From a virus, in the IMG/VR virus record IMGVR_UViG_3300017440_000005, positions 1 to 38,112 of that record: a stretch of DNA of 38,112 nucleotides; one strand, written 5' to 3'. The position numbers and the translations under genes are program-made. The notes beneath the pieces are model-generated. The model had not been told where the DNA came from and did no database searches. It saw nothing but the letters and a program-made list of their open reading frames with translations. This document shows positions 2,265 through 34,247 of this stretch, piece by piece (positions within the stretch are counted from its first letter, which is position 1; each line of letters begins with the position of its first letter).

Positions 2265-2620
2265 TGCCCCTCCCCGCCCGCCGCAAGCACAACAGCAATC
2301 GCGCTCACAAAGCGCGTGAGTATCCGCAGCATCGCGCTTGGGTTCGCGGCTTCCCGTGCATGGTGAAAGGCTGCGAGCCGAACCTGCGTGAGCCGGAAAC
2401 GATGGTGATCGAGGCCGCGCACGTTCGCCGCAATACCGATGGCGGGACTGCGCTCAAGCCGCACGATAAATGGGTGGTTCCGTTGTGCATCAAACATCAT
2501 CGCGAGCAGCACCGCGCCGACCTGACGTTTGAGGCCAAGTACGACATCGACACGCGCGACAAGGCTATCGAATACGCTGCCGGTTCGCCTCACCGCCACA
2601 AGTGGGAGTGCGACGAATGA
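2261..2620 (+). CDS. HNH-type / DUF968-like nuclease (putative)
   Basis: CMVKGC ... AAHVRRNTDGGTALKPHDKWVVPLCIKHHREQH matches the Cys-His pattern of lambdoid DUF968/HNH proteins. Confidence 0.5.
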   Translation: MMPLPARRKHNSNRAHKAREYPQHRAWVRGFPCMVKGCEPNLREPETMVIEAAHVRRNTDGGTALKPHDKWVVPLCIKHHREQHRADLTFEAKYDIDTRDKAIEYAAGSPHRHKWECDE

Positions 2621-3024
2621 ACGGACAAACAGTCATCCTGCGCGGTGATAGCCAACGCGACTTCGCCAAAGCGCTTATCAACCGCGCGCCCGACGACAGC
2701 GTGGTCAACATCCAGGCGGCACGTCGCACCAACGACCAGAACGCCAAGATGCACGCCATGCTGTCGGACATCGCCCGCGCCAAGCCGCAAGGCCGGGTGC
2801 TGACCACCGATGTGTGGAAGGCGCTGTTCATGGCTGAGGCGGGCTTCCGCTGCCATTTTGAGCCGAGCTTAGACGGCACTGGCGTTGTCCCGCTCGGGTT
2901 TAAGTCGTCCAAGCTGCGCAAGGCAGAATTTAGCGACCTCATCGAGTGCATCGGCGCTTTCGGCGCAGAGCATGGCGTCGAGTGGTCGGAACCGCACCCC
3001 TTTCAGTCGGAGTCACACTCATGA
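2617..3024 (+). CDS. ninB: NinB (Orf-family) recombination protein
   Basis: RTNDQNAKMHAMLSDIARA...VWKALF...KSSKLRKAEFSDLIECIGAFGAEHGVEWSE parallels lambda NinB RSLDQNRKLWACLGDVSRQ...SWKCVF...STSRMRVGEFAELLELIQAFGTERGVKWSD; ATG 2617 in ATGA overlap. Confidence 0.8.
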   Translation: MNGQTVILRGDSQRDFAKALINRAPDDSVVNIQAARRTNDQNAKMHAMLSDIARAKPQGRVLTTDVWKALFMAEAGFRCHFEPSLDGTGVVPLGFKSSKLRKAEFSDLIECIGAFGAEHGVEWSEPHPFQSESHS

Positions 3025-6499: not shown

Positions 6500-6780
6500 G
6501 GCATTTTCACCTACCACACAGAGGAACATACGCGGACAGGATCGCGAACGGGCTGGCAACATCACCAGCTATTACCGCAGTTTTACCGCGCTAGGTGCTG
6601 CGCCGTTCCGCATATATGAAAACGGAGGCTGAGGTTTAACATCCCCGTGGCTAGGCCGCGGTTGCCAGTCTGGCGGTTGACGCTTCGTAGGGCGCGCAGC
6701 CGCAACCCTCCACGTCCAGCAACGCGGTGTTCCCACGCTGTAAAATAACGATCGCGGCGTTGCGATCGGCATTGTCGTGA
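6500..6780 (-). ncRNA. putative omega RNA (reRNA) scaffold of TnpB; extent approximate
   Basis: By analogy with characterised TnpB systems, the scaffold overlaps the tnpB 3' end and the right end. Stems seen: CGATCGC/GCGATCG (6749-6768), GCTGG/CCAGC (6552-6569), long-range CTGCGG/CCGCAG (6496-6501 with 6575-6580) and GTGTGG/CCACAC (6485-6490 with 6514-6519). Confidence 0.4.
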
Positions 6781-7850
6781 TAACCGCAGGTCGTGCACGA
6801 AAACACCGCTTGGCTCTTACGGCTTTTCTTGTCGACCTCCCCGCACGAAGAACACGTCTGCGAGGAATATGCGGCGTTCACCTTTACTAAGCGGTCAGCC
6901 TTGTACGAGAGCATCCACTCAATCTGATGCCAGCCGACTGACAAGATCGCCCGGTTCAACCCTCTTTTCTGGGCAACATTCTTTCCGGGCGCTACAGCCG
7001 TCCCGGCTGCGCTGGCAGTCATAGCCGTAGTTCGCAGGCACTCTATCACTACCGTGCCATAACGACGGGCAATCAGCGTTGTCGTGACATGCGCCCAATG
7101 CTTACGCACGCGGGTTTGCTTGGCCCTCAACGCTGCAACCCGCCGCTGCGCTTTGGCGTAACGACACGATCCTTTGCAACGCCTGCTCACCGTCCGCTGC
7201 GCTCTAGCGGCTCTTTTGTCGAGTACGGCTATTGCTGGCGGCAAGCTGTACGTGGTGCCATCCGAGAGCGCCAAAGGTAGCGAAACGCCGCGGTCGATCC
7301 CAACCGCCAAAGGCTTAACCGTTTGGCTATCAGGCACGTTGCAACCTAAGCTGACCTGCCAACCCTGAACAGAACGAACGAACGTGACTTCCCGAATATC
7401 GGCTGGCAACGCCCGAGTCAGCCGCAGCTTTACCCACCCAAGCTTTGGCACCCAGATTGCAGCCCAACGCTTATTAAGTTGTTCAACCTTCACGTCGCGG
7501 CCAGCGAAGGAGAAAGCGTCTCGCACGCCCTTCTTCTTAACGTTAGGGAAGCCTGCACCTGCTTTCCACATGCGCTGATATGCTGTGTCTAGGTCTTTAA
7601 GTGTCCGCTGTACGGCAGCTTGCGGAACCTCCCGGATAAAATCGAAGGTAGCGCGCAGCTCCGTAAGTTCACGGGACTGGCTCGTGTAGTTGAGGAAGCT
7701 GCCGGTCTTAGCCCGATACTGCCGCCAGAAATCTCGCCGCTGCTCTAACGCCAAGTTCCACACCAAACGGCAAACCCCGGCATACTGCGCTAGCAGCCCG
7801 GCCTGTGTTTGCGTCGGGTATAGTTTAAAAGCGTAGCCGCGATATGCCAC
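6651..7850 (-). CDS. tnpB: TnpB, RNA-guided DNA endonuclease (IS200/IS605 OrfB family)
   Basis: 399 aa; N-terminus YRGYAFKLYPTQTQ; RuvC candidates VGIDRG (D), VVIECL (E), NADRNAA (D); zinc finger CSSCG...CTTCG; GTG start preceded by AAGGA. Confidence 0.9.
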   Translation of the reverse strand: MAYRGYAFKLYPTQTQAGLLAQYAGVCRLVWNLALEQRRDFWRQYRAKTGSFLNYTSQSRELTELRATFDFIREVPQAAVQRTLKDLDTAYQRMWKAGAGFPNVKKKGVRDAFSFAGRDVKVEQLNKRWAAIWVPKLGWVKLRLTRALPADIREVTFVRSVQGWQVSLGCNVPDSQTVKPLAVGIDRGVSLPLALSDGTTYSLPPAIAVLDKRAARAQRTVSRRCKGSCRYAKAQRRVAALRAKQTRVRKHWAHVTTTLIARRYGTVVIECLRTTAMTASAAGTAVAPGKNVAQKRGLNRAILSVGWHQIEWMLSYKADRLVKVNAAYSSQTCSSCGEVDKKSRKSQAVFSCTTCGYHDNADRNAAIVILQRGNTALLDVEGCGCAPYEASTARLATAA

Positions 7851-8195: not shown

Positions 8196-8245
8196 CAGCA
8201 TGGGTGAGCAGCACGATCCACCGCCAGGATGCTTGGGAATGCTGT

Positions 8246-8452
8246 TTAGCTGGGTTCCTTCTGCGTTACGGTCACATCCCCGCTATTGGTGGACGCGACT
8301 GGCGTCTTTGGGCGGAACGTCCCGAGCACGCCGATAAGACCGGTCATGATGGCGAGGTCGGCAGGCTTGCCGGTGAAGGCTCCCAACCCGGACAGCACGA
8401 CAATCGCAGCGATCAGTGCTAGGAAGGCAATCAGGTTCTCACGCTCAGTCAT
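8246..8452 (-). CDS. small two-TM membrane protein (holin-like; last gene of the lysis cassette)
   Basis: 68 aa from ATG 8452 (ATGA overlap with the endolysin stop); hydrophobic segments LIAFLALIAAIVVLSGLGAF and LAIMTGLIGVLGTF. Confidence 0.55.
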   Translation of the reverse strand: MTERENLIAFLALIAAIVVLSGLGAFTGKPADLAIMTGLIGVLGTFRPKTPVASTNSGDVTVTQKEPS

Positions 8453-9117
8453 TGCATAGCCTTTGCAAGCTTGGAGTGATAGTCGAAGCGTGCGTAACCT
8501 GGGCCGTTGTAGCCTTTGGCGAACGCGCGGCACGTTTCAGGATCACTCGACAGCGCGCGGATAGCCTTCACCAATCCGAACGTTTCGACATAGCGGCATA
8601 GCGCTTCGTAGTGACCGTATTCGCCTTCCCGCATAGCCCAAGGCATTGCCGTCTCGTCTAGGTAGCCGAGCGCCTTCCAGTGCGATCCCATGATCTGAAA
8701 CCGGCCCCAGCTCGCGGATTGAAAGGCGGCATCCGGGTCTTTGCCGGCCGCGTCCGCCAGCTTCTGCCAGCTACTCTCGCCATAGCCGCCTGCCGACGCG
8801 TTGCTGTAGGTGCACACCGACCACTTGCCTTGCGTGAGGCGATGAAAATAGTGGCGCTCGAACAGGATTTTGGGACGGCCAAGGTCGTCGTATGCGCTAC
8901 CCCCACTTTCCACCTTGGCCACGGCCATCACCTGCTTGCGAGTGCAGCTAAGGCGCTCAGCGATGCCGTCGATCTGATCGGACGTGATAGCCGGCGCAGA
9001 GAGGTTGCTGAACGCCGCTAGAAGCGCGTTGCGGGTGGCGGGGCCGTACTTGCCGTCTACCCCGATGGTGATTGCGCCGTGCTCATTGAGCCAACGCTGT
9101 AGGTCAGCGACGTTCAT
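8449..9117 (-). CDS. endolysin: peptidoglycan-binding domain + N-acetylmuramidase (DUF3380-type)
   Basis: N-terminal LQRWLNEHG...DGKYGPATRNALLAF (PG_binding_1 pattern); KVESGGSAYDDLGRPKILFERHYFHRLT and SWGRFQIMG match the muramidase/DUF3380 family. Confidence 0.85.
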   Translation of the reverse strand: MNVADLQRWLNEHGAITIGVDGKYGPATRNALLAAFSNLSAPAITSDQIDGIAERLSCTRKQVMAVAKVESGGSAYDDLGRPKILFERHYFHRLTQGKWSVCTYSNASAGGYGESSWQKLADAAGKDPDAAFQSASWGRFQIMGSHWKALGYLDETAMPWAMREGEYGHYEALCRYVETFGLVKAIRALSSDPETCRAFAKGYNGPGYARFDYHSKLAKAMQ

Positions 9118-19938: not shown

Positions 19939-20489
19939 GCCTCGTACCCGTCTGGATAGAACTCAGGGCTGAACTCCACCAGTGTCATAGGTACGCTGGC
20001 CGTCAGCATGATCTTAGCGCCATTATTGAAGAAGCTGTTGCGCACGGGAAATTTGAAATCGACTCTGATCTTTTCCTCAACGCCAGGCTGCGCGGTGATG
20101 GCCATATTCTTACCGCCAAGCTCAATGACGCCCGCCATGAACGACACACGCAGGACACCACCCACCTTATCCGGTACGACACGGATATCGCTGCTGTTGA
20201 AGAACGTGTCATAGAGCGCGTGCGGGCGCACTAACTTAGCGGTGTTGTCCCATGGTGCCCAATCGGTGAATGGACGGTTCAAACGACTGTTCGCCGCGGA
20301 TGCCGATAGATCGCGCATCATCTGCGTAGGCGTGCCTGCAACCAGTGACACCGTTACGCCAGCGTTATAGTCGTTGTCGGTGTAGTCGATGAACCCGCCA
20401 CCATATTCGCTGAACTCGCGGTTGTGAGCCGCCAGCGCCGCGTCGATGTCAGCTTGCGATGCACCGGGAGTGATGGCGAGGCCCGTCAT
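19935..20489 (-). CDS. hypothetical virion-module protein (184 aa)
   Basis: ATGA overlap with the collagen-like gene start; no family recognised. Confidence 0.5.
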
Positions 20490-20533
20490 CTCTGCTCTCC
20501 TACACCTGAGACGTGGGGGTCATGATCATGAAG

Positions 20534-21925
20534 TTATCCAATTCCATACGGATAACTGCCGATATCAAGCTTCATATAGCCGATGTTGCAAATCTTACCC
20601 GCGCCGGAACGGTTAGCGTCAGTTCCTTTTTGACCGTAGAAACGAAGGGTCAGTGGCAGCGCCAGATTAGTAAACTCGGGTAACTGCGCTTGAACCACGC
20701 GCAGCACGTACCCCCCGCCGGTCTGGTCATAAACGCTTGACGCATTGGAAAACGGCTGGTCAGCAATTGCAATCTCAGCGCCATTATACAGCAGCGCTAG
20801 ACGGCAACTAGTGCTCGGCTGCGTGGCAGGTAAAATGATCGGAGCCGACAGGGTGACTGTCTGCCGTGATAGCCTACGCAGCGCCCCGGTGTCTGTAATC
20901 TGCGTGTCAATGTAACTGTCGGCGTTCGTGCCGATAGTCAGATCGATAGATCGCCCACCTGTGATGTATGTCGTGGTGTTCTCGGCCAGCGTGGCATTCG
21001 TCGCGCTAAATCCAGCAAGCGTGCCGGCTGAATATGTCGCGAAGTTGCCATTCGGAACGAGATTGGGGGTCGTGACATTAAACGTCGGCGCGCGAGGAAA
21101 GCGCATCTCAACGCCGCTGTCGAACAAGCCCAGCATCAAGCTCGTGATGTTGGCATGGCCTAGCACGGAAGGGTGAACTTCGGTTGCAGCCGTGCTGGCA
21201 TACCAAGTTGCCGGTTTACCTGCGGCCAGGAATAGCGTTTCAGCGGGAATGATCGTAGCGTTCTTTAAAGCCGCAAGACGACGTGCGTTTTCTGAACTCA
21301 CTGCCCCGTTGTTGCTGCCGTAAATAGGCCATTGCTCCATCACTACCACACCGGCCTTCATGTGCCATGACTGTATAGTGTCGAGCGTTGCCAGCATCTG
21401 AGCCAGCGTGGTTCCGTTGAAGCCGAAATCATAGATAATCAGATCGACTTGTCCGGTAGAGCCAAGTCCCGAAGGGTAATAGCCTTGCCCGACGTTGGGA
21501 CTACCAAGCGCGTGCGCCGGTATCGTGCCGCCCACACCGGTATTATAGACGATGACAGTTCGCCCGTTAGTGCCCGTTTTTACGGTTTCAGTAACGCCAT
21601 ATCCGCCCGTAGCGGCATTGTAATTGTATCGGTGTACCCACGTGAAAGCGGGATAGCGCGCAACTAACGCGTCGATAAACTGCGCTGACCATCCCTTGCC
21701 CGGCGATCCGCCCCCGTAGGTTGAGGTGCTGTCACCAGCGATTAAGATGTTCACGTTGGAGTTTGCATCGCCCAACCGCTTTTTGACGTTGAAGAAGGCG
21801 GATACACTTTCGTGCCCTAGCAACGAACGCGCCACAGGATCAGGTGCCGTAACACCTGCTGCATCAATCCCTGCTTGAAACAACGCTTTTTGAGTAGGAG
21901 TAAGGTTACGGATGTCGAGCGCCAT
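20534..21925 (-). CDS. SGNH/GDSL-hydrolase domain tail protein (putative glycan esterase)
   Basis: Blocks I-V: ILIAGDSTS (GDS), YNTGVGG, DFGFNG, EVHPSVLGH (DxxH-like); C-terminal beta-rich extension. Confidence 0.7.
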   Translation of the reverse strand: MALDIRNLTPTQKALFQAGIDAAGVTAPDPVARSLLGHESVSAFFNVKKRLGDANSNVNILIAGDSTSTYGGGSPGKGWSAQFIDALVARYPAFTWVHRYNYNAATGGYGVTETVKTGTNGRTVIVYNTGVGGTIPAHALGSPNVGQGYYPSGLGSTGQVDLIIYDFGFNGTTLAQMLATLDTIQSWHMKAGVVVMEQWPIYGSNNGAVSSENARRLAALKNATIIPAETLFLAAGKPATWYASTAATEVHPSVLGHANITSLMLGLFDSGVEMRFPRAPTFNVTTPNLVPNGNFATYSAGTLAGFSATNATLAENTTTYITGGRSIDLTIGTNADSYIDTQITDTGALRRLSRQTVTLSAPIILPATQPSTSCRLALLYNGAEIAIADQPFSNASSVYDQTGGGYVLRVVQAQLPEFTNLALPLTLRFYGQKGTDANRSGAGKICNIGYMKLDIGSYPYGIG

Positions 21926-22107
21926 CAGACGGCTCCCAGCACGAGGGTAAAGCTGTCGCTACCGTCCAACGACACGACAGAAGCGTCAGAGCCGTCCAAG
22001 GACAATGCGAGAAGGGGAGCCGATCCCGGTGGACTGTAGGGCGGCGCATATTGCCCCGACGCGACAGGCCACCCCTGTTGTAGCCCGTAAGCTTTAGGCA
22101 GAACCAT
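21925..22107 (-). CDS. small hypothetical virion-module protein (60 aa)
   Basis: TAATG and TGATG-type overlaps with both neighbours. Confidence 0.4.
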   Translation of the reverse strand: MVLPKAYGLQQGWPVASGQYAPPYSPPGSAPLLALSLDGSDASVVSLDGSDSFTLVLGAV

Positions 22108-30099: not shown

Positions 30100-30239
30100 T
30101 ACAGCTCCACCTCGTGATTACGATATGCGCCTCTAGTGAACCGGCTGTTCCAAGAGTGTGTACGAGCGTTCCACATCACTTCTGCTCTCTGCCGCGCAAT
30201 GGCCTCGCGGAGTTTGATGAGTTCGTTATCCTCGGTCAT
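30099..30239 (-). CDS. small ORF (46 aa), below the track threshold
   Basis: Hand translation gives [46 protein letters not shown]. Its ATG overlaps the exonuclease stop (ATGA) and its TAA overlaps the next ATG. Confidence 0.45.
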   Translation of the reverse strand: MTEDNELIKLREAIARQRAEVMWNARTHSWNSRFTRGAYRNHEVEL

Positions 30240-30706
30240 GCGTGGCCTCCGAACGATCCAGGAAACAGCCGCTCACGAAGCGCAAAGGCATCCCAGAGCG
30301 CATTGTGCTGCACCGCGCCGTCAAGCGTGGTTGGGTATGCGTCGACCCGCACGATGTCGAACTGCATTCGGGGTATCGCGGCCATCTGACCCGGCCCGGT
30401 AATCACGGCTTGGCACAGGTAGCGCACGTCATCGGGCCAGTCGGTGATTATGTACGGAACACTGCCGCTACGCGCGGCGAAGAAGTCCGCGATCAGCTTA
30501 GCCCCTTCCGCCTGGGTGACACGGTGCACATCGCGGCCAGCGGGAACATCATCCATGATCGGCCATACGTTCTCAGCCACCCACGGCCCGAGCTTCGCCG
30601 GTTCGGGATAGCGAAGATAGAGAGCGTCACCATCGGCGCGGACGAGAGCGAGGCTTAGCAACTCCCCGCCAAACTCGTTGAACTCGGTATCGAGAAAATA
30701 CCTCAT
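30236..30706 (-). CDS. DEDD 3'-5' exo(ribo)nuclease, Rv2179c-like
   Basis: [30 protein letters not shown] parallels Rv2179c MRYFYDTEFIEDGRTIELISIGVVAEDGREYY; distal HNALWDA motif. Confidence 0.75.
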
Positions 30707-30978
30707 GCGTTCTCTCCCTTAGTAAGGGATTGCAAACCAAGACTTTCTTTCAGTTCGGCGGCAATCGCAGCGGCGATGTCCTTGCCATCTTGCGGGGGCG
30801 TCGTGCTGACATAGAACACGCCGATTGAGGTAGAGCGCTCCGTGGCTTCTACTACCATGATGGTTGCACACAAACCGGTGCACTCGTCGCAAATGCAAAT
30901 CTTGTCAGGTCCGGCGACAAGCTTCTTTACCTCATGCTGCGTTTTCATGCAGAACGAACACCGTAGTACGTCACTCAT
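30703..30978 (-). CDS. standalone ClpX-type C4 zinc-finger (ZBD) protein
   Basis: [36 protein letters not shown] versus E. coli ClpX [36 protein letters not shown]; no AAA+ module follows. Confidence 0.8.
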
Positions 30979-31543
30979 GTGCCGTGCCTCCCGCTGCTAG
31001 AGTGAAGGCGTCGGCTTCGAGAACGCGGCCGCGCTTGATGGCGGTGAGGGCTGCGCGAACGTCCCAATCGCCATCTTTCTGACCATCGCGGGTCCCAGCT
31101 ATGCTTTCCATCTCAAACCCGCCCTCAGCATCCATCGCATCCGCGACGATCCGCCTCGCTTCGATCAAATCAGGGTCTATCGGGTCTACTGGCTTAGGTA
31201 GATCGGATAGTAGTTCAGCAGCTTGTGGACCGACCATTGGGTGATCTGACGCGATTGTCAGGACATGACGCAGCATGTTAAACTTCGCGCGGTCCATCTC
31301 CATCCGCTGTGTTAGTTCCTCATTAGAGGGGGTGGAGGACTTGGCGGAGGTGACGTTGCGGATGCGCCAAGGCCCGCCTGACCAGCTCTCGCCGCCCACC
31401 TCGAAAATAGAGTACATATCATTCAAGACAGGCTCGACATGATAGTCGCCGTCCTGATCAATCTTCACAACTTTGACGCGAACAGTTCGCCCATCTTCAG
31501 TGTTGAAGGCTTCCAGCCGCTCAGACCAGTCAGGTTTACCCAC
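30971..31543 (-). CDS. hypothetical protein (190 aa)
   Basis: GTG start preceded by AGGGAG; no family recognised. Confidence 0.5.
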
Positions 31544-32470: not shown

Positions 32471-33831
32471 GCGCGCACCGCCTGGAAACGAGTATAAAAG
32501 TGGCCGAAAGCGGTGCCGGTGCGGCCGTTGCGGCGCTTGGCGCACACAAACTCAAGCTGGTTCTCGACAGCGGCAATCGCCTGCTCCCAATCCAGCCGCT
32601 CAGGGCTGTCACGATCGGGCTCGGCTTGCCGTAAATAATATTCCTGTCGCACCAGGAACACGACGGCATCGGCGTCCTGCTCAATCTGCCCGCTGTCGCG
32701 AAGGTCAGAAAGCTGCGGCCGCTTGTCGGTGCGCTTCTCTACCTCACGGCTGAGCTGGGCGAGGGCAATGACTCCTACCCCAGCGTCCTTGGCGATTTGC
32801 TTGAGGCCGCGGCTGATCTCGCTGACCGTCTCGTAGGCGCTGCGCCCCTTACCGTCGATCGAGAGAAGCTGGAGGTAGTCGACCATCACCAGGTCAAGCT
32901 TCTGGCCCTTAGCGGCCATACGGCGGGCGTAGCGGCGCACGATCATCGCTAAGCGTCCGATCGTCAGCTTGCCGGTGTCCACGACGTTGAACGGCATATC
33001 CGCCAGCATCGCACCGGCCTGAGCTACGGCAGCGACCGTACGGCGGTCAGGCCGCTCACACAGGATGTCGTCAAGCGGGACACCGTTGTGCCCGTCAAAG
33101 GAGAGGTCAGCCGCCATACGGCCCGCCAATTCCTCGCCACCCATCTCAAGGCTCACGAACAGCACGCCGTGCCCCGCCTGGGCGGCCCCAAGGGCATAAG
33201 ACAACGCCGTCGCGGTTTTACCCATGCCCGGCCGCGCTGCGAGGATCACAAGCTGCTTCGGGCGCACCGGCCCAAGCAGATCATCCATTGGCGCGACGAT
33301 ATGCGACTTGACACCTTGGGTGGGCTGCTCGAAGCTTTTAAGCAGGCGATTGACGCAATCGGCCCCGGTGATCTCCGTAGCGCTCGCACGGCCCTCTAAC
33401 GCCGCGACAATGGCATGATCGGCAACGTCCGCGACGCTCTCTAGCGAAGTCTCAGCATCACCGGCCGCGGCGATGCTCTCGCTCAGACCTTCCACCAACC
33501 GACGCCGACGCGCAGTACGGGCGATCAGCCGTGCGCTTTCCAGCGCCGGGGTCGCGGCAGATGCCAGCGTGACTAGCTCTGCCAGAAACGCGTCACCGCC
33601 AATCTCACCGTAATTAGCATGGCCCACCAGCAGCGGGCGCAACGTCACCGGATTGGCGGCGCGCCCCTGCGAGTATTCAGACAACATGCACCCGAACACG
33701 TGCCCGAAAAACGGCTCATAGAAGTCCTCGGACTCAACGATGTCGGCAACTGCGTCGATGCGCTTGTTATCCATCGCCAGCGCGCCGAGCAGCAAGTACT
33801 CGGCGTCAACGGAGCGCGCCGGGCCGCTCAT
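32467..33831 (-). CDS. dnaB: replicative DNA helicase (DnaB family)
   Basis: 454 aa; N-terminal AEYLLLGALAMDNKRID...DFYEPFFGHVF; Walker A ARPGMGKTA; SLEM; Walker B VMVDYLQLL. Confidence 0.9.
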   Translation of the reverse strand: MSGPARSVDAEYLLLGALAMDNKRIDAVADIVESEDFYEPFFGHVFGCMLSEYSQGRAANPVTLRPLLVGHANYGEIGGDAFLAELVTLASAATPALESARLIARTARRRRLVEGLSESIAAAGDAETSLESVADVADHAIVAALEGRASATEITGADCVNRLLKSFEQPTQGVKSHIVAPMDDLLGPVRPKQLVILAARPGMGKTATALSYALGAAQAGHGVLFVSLEMGGEELAGRMAADLSFDGHNGVPLDDILCERPDRRTVAAVAQAGAMLADMPFNVVDTGKLTIGRLAMIVRRYARRMAAKGQKLDLVMVDYLQLLSIDGKGRSAYETVSEISRGLKQIAKDAGVGVIALAQLSREVEKRTDKRPQLSDLRDSGQIEQDADAVVFLVRQEYYLRQAEPDRDSPERLDWEQAIAAVENQLEFVCAKRRNGRTGTAFGHFYTRFQAVRA

Positions 33832-34247
33832 TCCATGCCGTCCGACAGCCGGGCCATAATCGGCTTGATGATCTCGCCAATTGGACGAGCCTCACCCGCA
33901 TACGACCCTTCGATAGTCACCAGCACGCCGGTGATTGACTGATCGCGCTCGATAACAATGCGTTCGATGTAGCGATCGTCCGCCATGTCGAGCTTAGCGA
34001 CCAACAGGTCGGTCAGCGGCTTTTCACGGTTCGCAATGTCAGACTGGTAGTTAAGCCCCAGTCGAATATTCAGCGCGATTGGGCGATGTACGGCCGGTGC
34101 GCCATAGGCGGCATACTGCGCCATCAGCTTCTCGCCCGCCTCGGCTTTCCAAGCCGTATAAGCCTTGCTTGCGAACCGCCGCTTGGTGCGGAAATCCGTC
34201 GCGAAACACGCGTTGACGCTTGGAGGCATGGGAAGATCGAACGTCAT
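33828..34247 (-). CDS. rusA: RusA-family Holliday junction resolvase
   Basis: LPMPPSVN, DIANREKPLTDLL and ADDRYI parallel RusA LPWPPSNN, DLDNLQKAAFDAL and LDDAQV. Confidence 0.75.
   Translation of the reverse strand: MTFDLPMPPSVNACFATDFRTKRRFASKAYTAWKAEAGEKLMAQYAAYGAPAVHRPIALNIRLGLNYQSDIANREKPLTDLLVAKLDMADDRYIERIVIERDQSITGVLVTIEGSYAGEARPIGEIIKPIMARLSDGME

Follow-up and report, generated by a model that had tools for sequence, protein, structure and literature searches.

Introduction

The ClpXP protease controls replication initiators, repressors, transposases and antitoxins and, in alphaproteobacteria, the cell cycle. Precedents for phage proteins directed against host proteases are lambda CIII (FtsH), T4 PinA (Lon) and T7 Gp4.5 (Lon). 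Phage inhibitors are known for FtsH and Lon, and we know of none that copies the substrate-docking domain of ClpX. As an isolated fragment, this zinc-binding domain (ZBD) reportedly binds lambda O and SspB.

Phe16 and Ile46 of the E. coli ClpX N-terminal domain lie in a hydrophobic side pocket; this region coincides in part with the site for lambda O, and SspB, RssB and trigger factor also bind there (PMC7804408). Degradation of lambda O requires the ZBD, and Caulobacter CpdR primes ClpX via the same domain (PMC7804408). In Caulobacter, the ClpX N-domain has an essential, species-specific role in the choice of substrates (PMC5422525), and adaptor- and degron-specific selection has the N-domain as its hub (PMC7804408, PMC5422525). 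Phage-encoded Clp adaptors have also been proposed, for example the ClpS homologues of jumbo phages (PMC7824862).

Here we describe a 91-residue protein, encoded on a phage genome-sized metagenome contig, in which a predicted ClpX-type ZBD is followed by a conserved tail. The protein is a candidate mimic of the ClpX N-domain. We compare it with ClpX, with other standalone ZBD proteins of phages and with the known phage modulators of host proteases.

Results

The gene and its predicted zinc-binding domain

The contig analysed here (38,112 nt; hereafter the window) looks like a complete phage genome. The ZBD gene occupies positions 30703–30978 on the minus strand and is complete, with 91 codons and a TGA stop. 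A Shine–Dalgarno sequence read from the DNA, GGGAGG (30987–30992, minus strand), lies 8 nt 5′ of the ATG and within the 3′ end of an upstream 190-residue gene, with which the coding sequence overlaps by 8 nt. At its other end, the stop codon overlaps the ATG of a downstream DEDD-type exonuclease gene by 4 nt (ATGA). An identical protein is carried by four metagenome contigs, and homologues from several phage lineages have the same length and architecture. The reading frame is a genuine gene.

Residues 4–45 (30844–30969, minus strand) are predicted to form a C4 ZBD of the ClpX type, with a treble-clef fold. The Pfam profile PF06689 (zf-C4_ClpX) matches residues 6–41 with an E-value of 1.7e-15 and a score of 57.1 bits against a gathering threshold of 27. 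A sequence-only reading of the window had recognized the N-terminal C4 zinc finger of ClpX in this protein and named this profile as a check; the profile score, the PDB matches and the modelled fold all bear the identification out. A phmmer search of the PDB with the protein finds ClpX chains only, aligned over residues 4–46 (1OVX, 5e-11; 2DS5, 7e-11), and the entries for the isolated E. coli ZBD, 1OVX and 2DS5–2DS8, are among the matches. An AlphaFold2 monomer model, for which the input was an 18-sequence family alignment, has pLDDT values of 87–95 across residues 1–30. Foldseek superimposes this model on 2DS5_A with an rmsd of 0.6 Å over 37 residues, at 62% identity.

Four cysteine residues are predicted to coordinate zinc: Cys7 and Cys10 in the first knuckle (C7-S-F-C10; 30949–30960, minus strand) and Cys30 and Cys33 in the second (C30-D-E-C33; 30880–30891, minus strand). 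Their codons were confirmed by eye in the raw sequence, and they align with Cys14, Cys17, Cys36 and Cys39 of E. coli ClpX in the same CxxC...CxxC arrangement. Phe9, within the first knuckle, corresponds to E. coli Phe16 of the hydrophobic ligand pocket. The second pocket residue, E. coli Ile46, corresponds to Ile40 in the C-terminal end of the ZBD helix (A38-T-I40-M-V-V43; 30850–30867, minus strand).

No significant similarity to ClpX extends beyond this domain. The NCBIfam equivalogs for full-length ClpX (TIGR00382 and NF003745) align at profile positions 4–50 of ~418 only and score 36–40 bits, far below their cut-offs of 359–371, and the protein ends at residue 91 with no Walker A motif. This agrees with the sequence-only reading, which had noted that an AAA+ module is missing. 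The match to the ClpX-type zinc finger is far above chance, and the product is predicted to be a bona fide zinc-ribbon ZBD that has all four ligands and no ATPase.

A conserved tail and a remodelled helix define a subfamily

A search of 1.84 billion cluster representatives at E ≤ 1e-3 returned 7,558 matches, ClpX itself included. The 150 best of these are almost all short non-ClpX proteins, many of them with 2–5 tandem copies of the ZBD. A subset of the matches aligns over the whole query, and a profile search enlarges this subset to at least 18 proteins of 80–126 residues. The query is 36–49% identical to the 17 other members over its full length. In their common layout, the N-terminal ZBD is followed by a short linker rich in acidic residues and glycine, by an aromatic motif and an invariant proline, and then by an amphipathic helix and a variable C-terminus. 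Every one of these features is found in the query.

The aromatic motif of the query, I52-G-V-F-Y-V-S-T59 (30802–30825, minus strand), is strand-like and modelled with low confidence; its consensus is G-x-[WY]-[YF]-[VL]-S-[RK]. It is followed by the invariant Pro62 and by the amphipathic helix at residues 65–80 (together 30739–30795, minus strand; helix consensus IIKxIVRELREE). The variable end, residues 81–91 with the stop codon (30703–30738, minus strand), is predicted to be disordered, and in the members other than the query it is mostly acidic. In AlphaFold2 monomers of the query and of P0154 the tail helix is confident (pLDDT 80–90) and the strand-like segment is not, and the helix is left unplaced relative to the ZBD (pTM 0.41 and 0.46). 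The sequence-only reading had called this region a short unrelated tail. Its lack of ClpX similarity is upheld by hhalign and by a profile scan, but the phrase undersells a conserved module, which sets at least 18 phage or prophage proteins apart as a subfamily and is no random appendage.

A column-wise comparison of the 18 members with 79 ClpX N-termini shows both retained and altered positions. The zinc ligands, Phe9 and Ile40 are invariant in all 18 members. Of the core hydrophobic residues, Ile29 is invariant as well, Leu20 is kept in 17 of 18 and Leu36 in 16 of 18. Where E. coli ClpX has Asn44, Asp45, Arg48 and Glu49, ClpX proteins are polar and the subfamily is hydrophobic. Across 483 ZBD units from the retrieved proteins, the mean Kyte–Doolittle value at these four helix positions is +1.57 for tail-bearing proteins (16 units) and −1.86 for other standalone proteins (466 units); the single Walker A-containing, ATPase-bearing protein of the set (1 unit) has a value of −3.5. 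The tail thus co-occurs and co-varies with the remodelled end of the helix, and the protein amounts to more than a decoy domain alone. The pairing suggests that the two form one surface, either by packing against each other or by contributing jointly to an oligomer or partner interface.

Two origins for the tail were considered and set aside. MAFFT places Pro62 on the invariant Pro66 of ClpX and aligns a matching hydrophobic pattern, as though the tail were left over from the ClpX linker and the first AAA+ helix. A tail-only hhalign comparison was empty, however, and the full-length alignment stops at residue 48, passing the ZBD only at a mact setting of 0.05 and with near-zero posterior. When the profile was scanned without gaps across ~400 ClpX offsets, the five best did not include the collinear one, and this origin is unsupported. 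A degenerate second ZBD, as might be read from MAFFT alignments with double-ZBD proteins, found no good ZBD offset in the profile scan, and the tail contains no cysteine ligands. A profile search of the PDB gave no relatives of the tail at E ≤ 10. The tail profile retrieved only three known ZBD members from a set of 5.8 billion proteins, in a search of limited sensitivity because it depends on shared words.

The same features bear on whether the gene is alive at all. The domain is clearly clpX-derived, and the placement of Pro62 on Pro66 makes the protein look superficially like a truncated ClpX, which would fit a captured 5′ end of clpX that is no longer functional, or a gene-calling artefact. 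Against this stand the strong Shine–Dalgarno sequence and the translational coupling to both neighbours, the absence of significant ClpX similarity in the tail, and the persistence, at 36–49% identity, of an intact reading frame of similar length with a conserved tail in at least 18 proteins whose phage contexts differ. We regard such an explanation as scarcely credible.

The tail also raises the question of cargo. Its conservation suggests either avidity through self-association or a second binding function, and the latter merges into a model in which the protein is a hijacking adaptor: the ZBD would dock on ClpX, by N-domain pairing or through a dimeric adaptor acting as a bridge, and the tail would bring along a cargo, for instance a defence protein or a regulator of the host, for destruction by ClpXP. 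We consider this unlikely. The ClpX ZBD dimer is very stable, so that exchange with free domains may be slow. There is no sign of a cargo, and neither the PDB nor the 5.8-billion-protein set yields detectable relatives of the tail outside the subfamily. In its favour, a conserved second module would be needless in a pure decoy, and phage Clp adaptors have been proposed earlier, the jumbo-phage ClpS (PMC7824862) among them.

Standalone ZBD genes in phages and prophages

Standalone ZBD genes are widespread in phages. Four PHROG families match the query (6797, 12435, 5259 and 20296); the best of these matches, to PHROG 6797 (E = 4e-12), is limited to the ZBD part of that family, positions 62–105 of 107, and the three others are weaker. 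By tblastn, standalone ZBD genes are present in phages of E. coli (P88, D6 and PhiR44_2), Listeria, Enterococcus, Staphylococcus and Bacillus. In IMG/VR, at least 481 contigs with ZBD relatives were confirmed by a pattern scan, and among the best 80 of these 52 encode short proteins without Walker A and 28 encode full-length ClpX. Pseudomonas phage PP9W2 encodes a 65-residue standalone ZBD protein that is annotated as 'Clp protease'.

The version carried by P2-like prophages, which 112 of the 5,426 complete E. coli genomes contain, is a 110-residue protein with a C-terminal ZBD and bears the RefSeq name 'ClpX C4-type zinc finger protein'. In P88 (L001, 2821–3488) this gene overlaps a downstream 112-residue gene that has no assigned function, and the pair lies in a variable region between ParM/StbB-type partition genes, which it follows directly, and the portal gene. 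The GenBank label of the P88 ZBD gene, 'carboxylate-amine ligase', looks like a misannotation.

A scan of a genome collection for further prophage copies returned at least 600 stretches, of which the best 80 were considered; all 80 are clpX (79 full-length and one cut by a contig end), and they served as the ClpX comparison set. We found no published functional study of standalone ZBD proteins in the full-text literature, and one preprint discarded a contig for carrying a ClpX zinc-finger domain. The ZBD-plus-tail protein is thus a new variant within an annotated but uncharacterized class of standalone ClpX-type ZBD proteins.

Several of the retrieved proteins (P0003, P0004, P0010, P0016, P0021 and P0074) consist of 2–5 tandem ClpX-type ZBDs and no other domain. 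The size and diversity of the non-ClpX ZBD population, with its tandem arrays and its fusions to other domains, keep alive the possibility that the fold and the tail together make up a generic dimerization or protein-binding unit. Such a unit would bind some other protein of the phage or the host, one involved for instance in replication, recombination or regulation, and would leave ClpXP unaffected. ZBD–sigma factor fusions, reported from cyanobacteria (PMC11119718), fit this explanation, as does the gain of a new module together with the change of four polar helix positions to hydrophobic residues, since part of the interaction surface must then be new. On the other side, the protein is 57–62% identical to the ClpX ZBD, including surface positions such as QHEV.KL.AGP, which suggests constraint by the same ligands. 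The pocket residues Phe16 and Ile46 are invariant, and the gene neighbourhood points to no alternative partner. A role independent of ClpXP is possible, if doubtful, and is the chief competitor of the N-domain mimic.

Genomic setting

In the window, the ZBD gene lies in a minus-strand run of genes that, from high to low coordinates, includes RusA, DnaB helicase, a DnaD-like initiator or loader, a 77-residue gene and the 190-residue orphan. The ZBD gene follows, and then come the DEDD/Rv2179c-like 3′–5′ exonuclease, two small genes, DUF5681, the large terminase and a P22-type portal. The sequence-only reading had placed the ZBD gene three genes downstream of an O-like initiator. The gene order is as described, but the 234-residue initiator matches DnaD-like PHROGs (PHROG 2514) and no Pfam family, and its identity as lambda O is not demonstrated.

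The upstream 190-residue gene (30971–31543, minus strand) has no match in Pfam, PHROGs, NCBIfam or PADLOC, and it is not conserved beside other members of the subfamily. The downstream gene (30236–30706, minus strand) encodes a DEDD-type 3′–5′ exonuclease that matches PHROG 2259 ('RNase H') and, weakly, RNase AS/Rv2179c-like proteins. Two other loci (L011, 1651–2367; L014, 2157–2741) likewise have an Rv2179c-like or RNase_T exonuclease gene no more than ~2 kb from the ZBD gene, and the exonucleases at the three loci have no mutual blastp similarity at 1e-3.

Elsewhere in the window, a NinB homologue (2602–3024, plus strand; Pfam E = 8e-26) and the RusA homologue (33828–34247, minus strand) lie on opposite strands, which points to accessory recombination functions of the lambdoid type in divergent early operons. 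Between the structural genes and the plus-strand operon, positions 6651–7850 (minus strand) encode a 399-residue protein of the TnpB/IS605 OrfB type, with matches to PHROG 506 ('transposase') and to the Pfam families HTH_OrfB_IS605, OrfB_IS605 and Cas12f1-like TNB; the local GC content is slightly lower (0.58). The lowest GC content of the window (0.554, against ~0.62 elsewhere) is found at 20001–22000 and covers a 463-residue reading frame (20534–21925, minus strand) in the structural region, possibly a gene for the tail or for host recognition that was exchanged recently. The window yielded neither an integrase nor a tRNA gene, and a megablast search of INPHARED gave no close phage relative. 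The portal shares 40% identity with its counterpart in Pseudanabaena phage Pam1, and DNA of the window is found in phyllosphere metagenomes.

Eight loci with subfamily members were compared by all-against-all blastp of the flanking genes. All eight are early or accessory regions of phages or prophages. At one locus the ZBD gene sits amid SSB and HNH genes, and at another it adjoins RecT/RNase T. In a prophage of Sphingomonas sp. BK069 it is located between a LexA/CI-type repressor gene and the AlpA/integrase end, a position that we take to be comparable to the lambda pL operon carrying cIII. On the contig of one relative (L010), positions 8244–8606 encode an Acb2/Tad1 hairpin-domain protein, of the anti-CBASS/Thoeris sponge family, ~5 kb downstream of the subfamily member.

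The ZBD gene is the only gene common to the eight loci, and no conserved partner was detected by this comparison. The position after the initiator in the window is not conserved among these loci, and the functional link to the replication initiator that the sequence-only reading had drawn finds no comparative support. The ZBD-plus-tail gene behaves like a cassette of its own. Its movement as a single gene without a conserved partner fits an effector that is directed at the host.

These contexts also bear on a possible role in prophage-borne anti-phage defence or in a toxin–antitoxin system, for instance as an antitoxin or a sensor whose stability is tied to ClpXP. The overlap of the P2-like E. 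coli gene with its 112-residue neighbour, in a variable region between replication/partition and portal genes, has something of this character, and one relative's contig carries the Acb2/Tad1-hairpin gene. Yet PADLOC-DB v2 gave no match for the ZBD protein, for its neighbours in the window or for the P88 gene pair, no neighbour is conserved across the eight subfamily loci, and the gene in the window lies inside the replication operon of an apparently complete phage genome. A defence or toxin–antitoxin role is accordingly rated very unlikely.

Discussion

A candidate mimic of the ClpX N-domain

We tentatively favour, with rather less than even confidence, the view that the ZBD-plus-tail protein belongs to the early accessory proteins of the phage, mimics the N-domain of host ClpX and perturbs adaptor- or N-domain-dependent proteolysis by ClpXP. 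With the pocket residues Phe9 and Ile40 invariant, the free domain could plausibly bind the same ligands as ClpX, and their invariance throughout the subfamily makes an N-domain mimic the most economical reading. Every member with a recoverable context lies among early phage or prophage genes, and standalone ZBD genes are frequent in viral contigs, both of which favour it. The decoy role that the sequence-only reading had proposed is plausible, and it is partly supported at the level of individual residues.

In the mechanism that we envisage, the protein would be produced together with the replication genes. It would compete with the N-domains of ClpX for adaptor tails or for N-domain-dependent degrons, or pair with those N-domains, or both. 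The substrate choice of ClpXP would then shift during early infection: proteins that require the N-domain would be stabilized, and degradation of the ssrA type would be unaffected. The tail would most likely add self-association or a second binding surface and so raise avidity or specificity.

Several observations weigh against an N-domain mimic. The monomer models leave the position of the tail relative to the ZBD unassigned. The short non-ClpX and tandem ZBD proteins are numerous, and the domain may be a general interaction module. The eight loci reveal no apparent conserved association with a replication initiator. Finally, the remodelled helix positions flank Ile46, so that the tail could occupy the pocket in cis, which would argue against simple titration of adaptors.

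Implications

Standalone ZBD genes are a common class in phages, for which functional claims rest on domain homology. It is conceivable, although we would not presume it, that the ZBD-plus-tail proteins, and perhaps all phage standalone ZBD proteins, constitute a widespread and unrecognized class of effectors that copy the domain with which ClpX docks substrates and adaptors, and so reprogramme the ClpXP of the host during infection. A class of this kind would account for a gene that recurs as 'hypothetical' across hundreds of phage genomes and would represent a new phage route for tuning lysogeny and lysis or for evading protease-triggered defences. In alphaproteobacterial hosts, they could intercept the hierarchy of adaptors that depends on the N-domain (CpdR and downstream) or substrates with the same dependence. 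Possible outcomes would include a stall of the cell cycle, protection of phage proteins or a block to protease-triggered abortive-infection toxins. The proteins would also provide natural, substrate-class-selective modulators of ClpXP as research tools. If they instead act independently of ClpXP, a large family of standalone and tandem ZBD proteins would still need explaining. The P2-like prophage version, in its 112 complete E. coli genomes, offers a tractable entry point.

Comparison with known systems

The closest described relative of the phage domain is the ZBD of E. coli ClpX. The two share the PF06689 assignment, the predicted fold and the two residues of the hydrophobic pocket, and the four cysteines have the same spacing except for one inserted residue. 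They differ in that the phage ZBD is not joined to an AAA+ ATPase and carries a conserved, unrelated tail instead, and in the hydrophobic character of the positions that correspond to the polar Asn44, Asp45, Arg48 and Glu49.

Other phage standalone ZBD proteins resemble the query in being small, in lacking an ATPase and in their location in early or accessory regions. The type found in E. coli and in PHROG 6797 has an N-terminal extension of ~60 residues before a C-terminal ZBD, whereas in the query the ZBD is N-terminal and the tail follows; only the ZBD can be aligned between them. The tandem proteins, such as P0003 (four copies) and P0010 and P0016 (two copies each), likewise have no ATPase and are the best-scoring relatives in the library of 1.84 billion representatives. 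With their 2–5 copies, they retain the polar, ClpX-like helix end and have no tail motif.

Lambda CIII, T4 PinA, T7 Gp4.5 and the ClpS proteins of jumbo phages offer an analogy only, as small early phage proteins that alter, or are proposed to alter, the flow of substrates through a host protease. None of them is related to the ZBD-plus-tail protein in sequence or fold, and none copies the substrate-docking domain of the protease itself.
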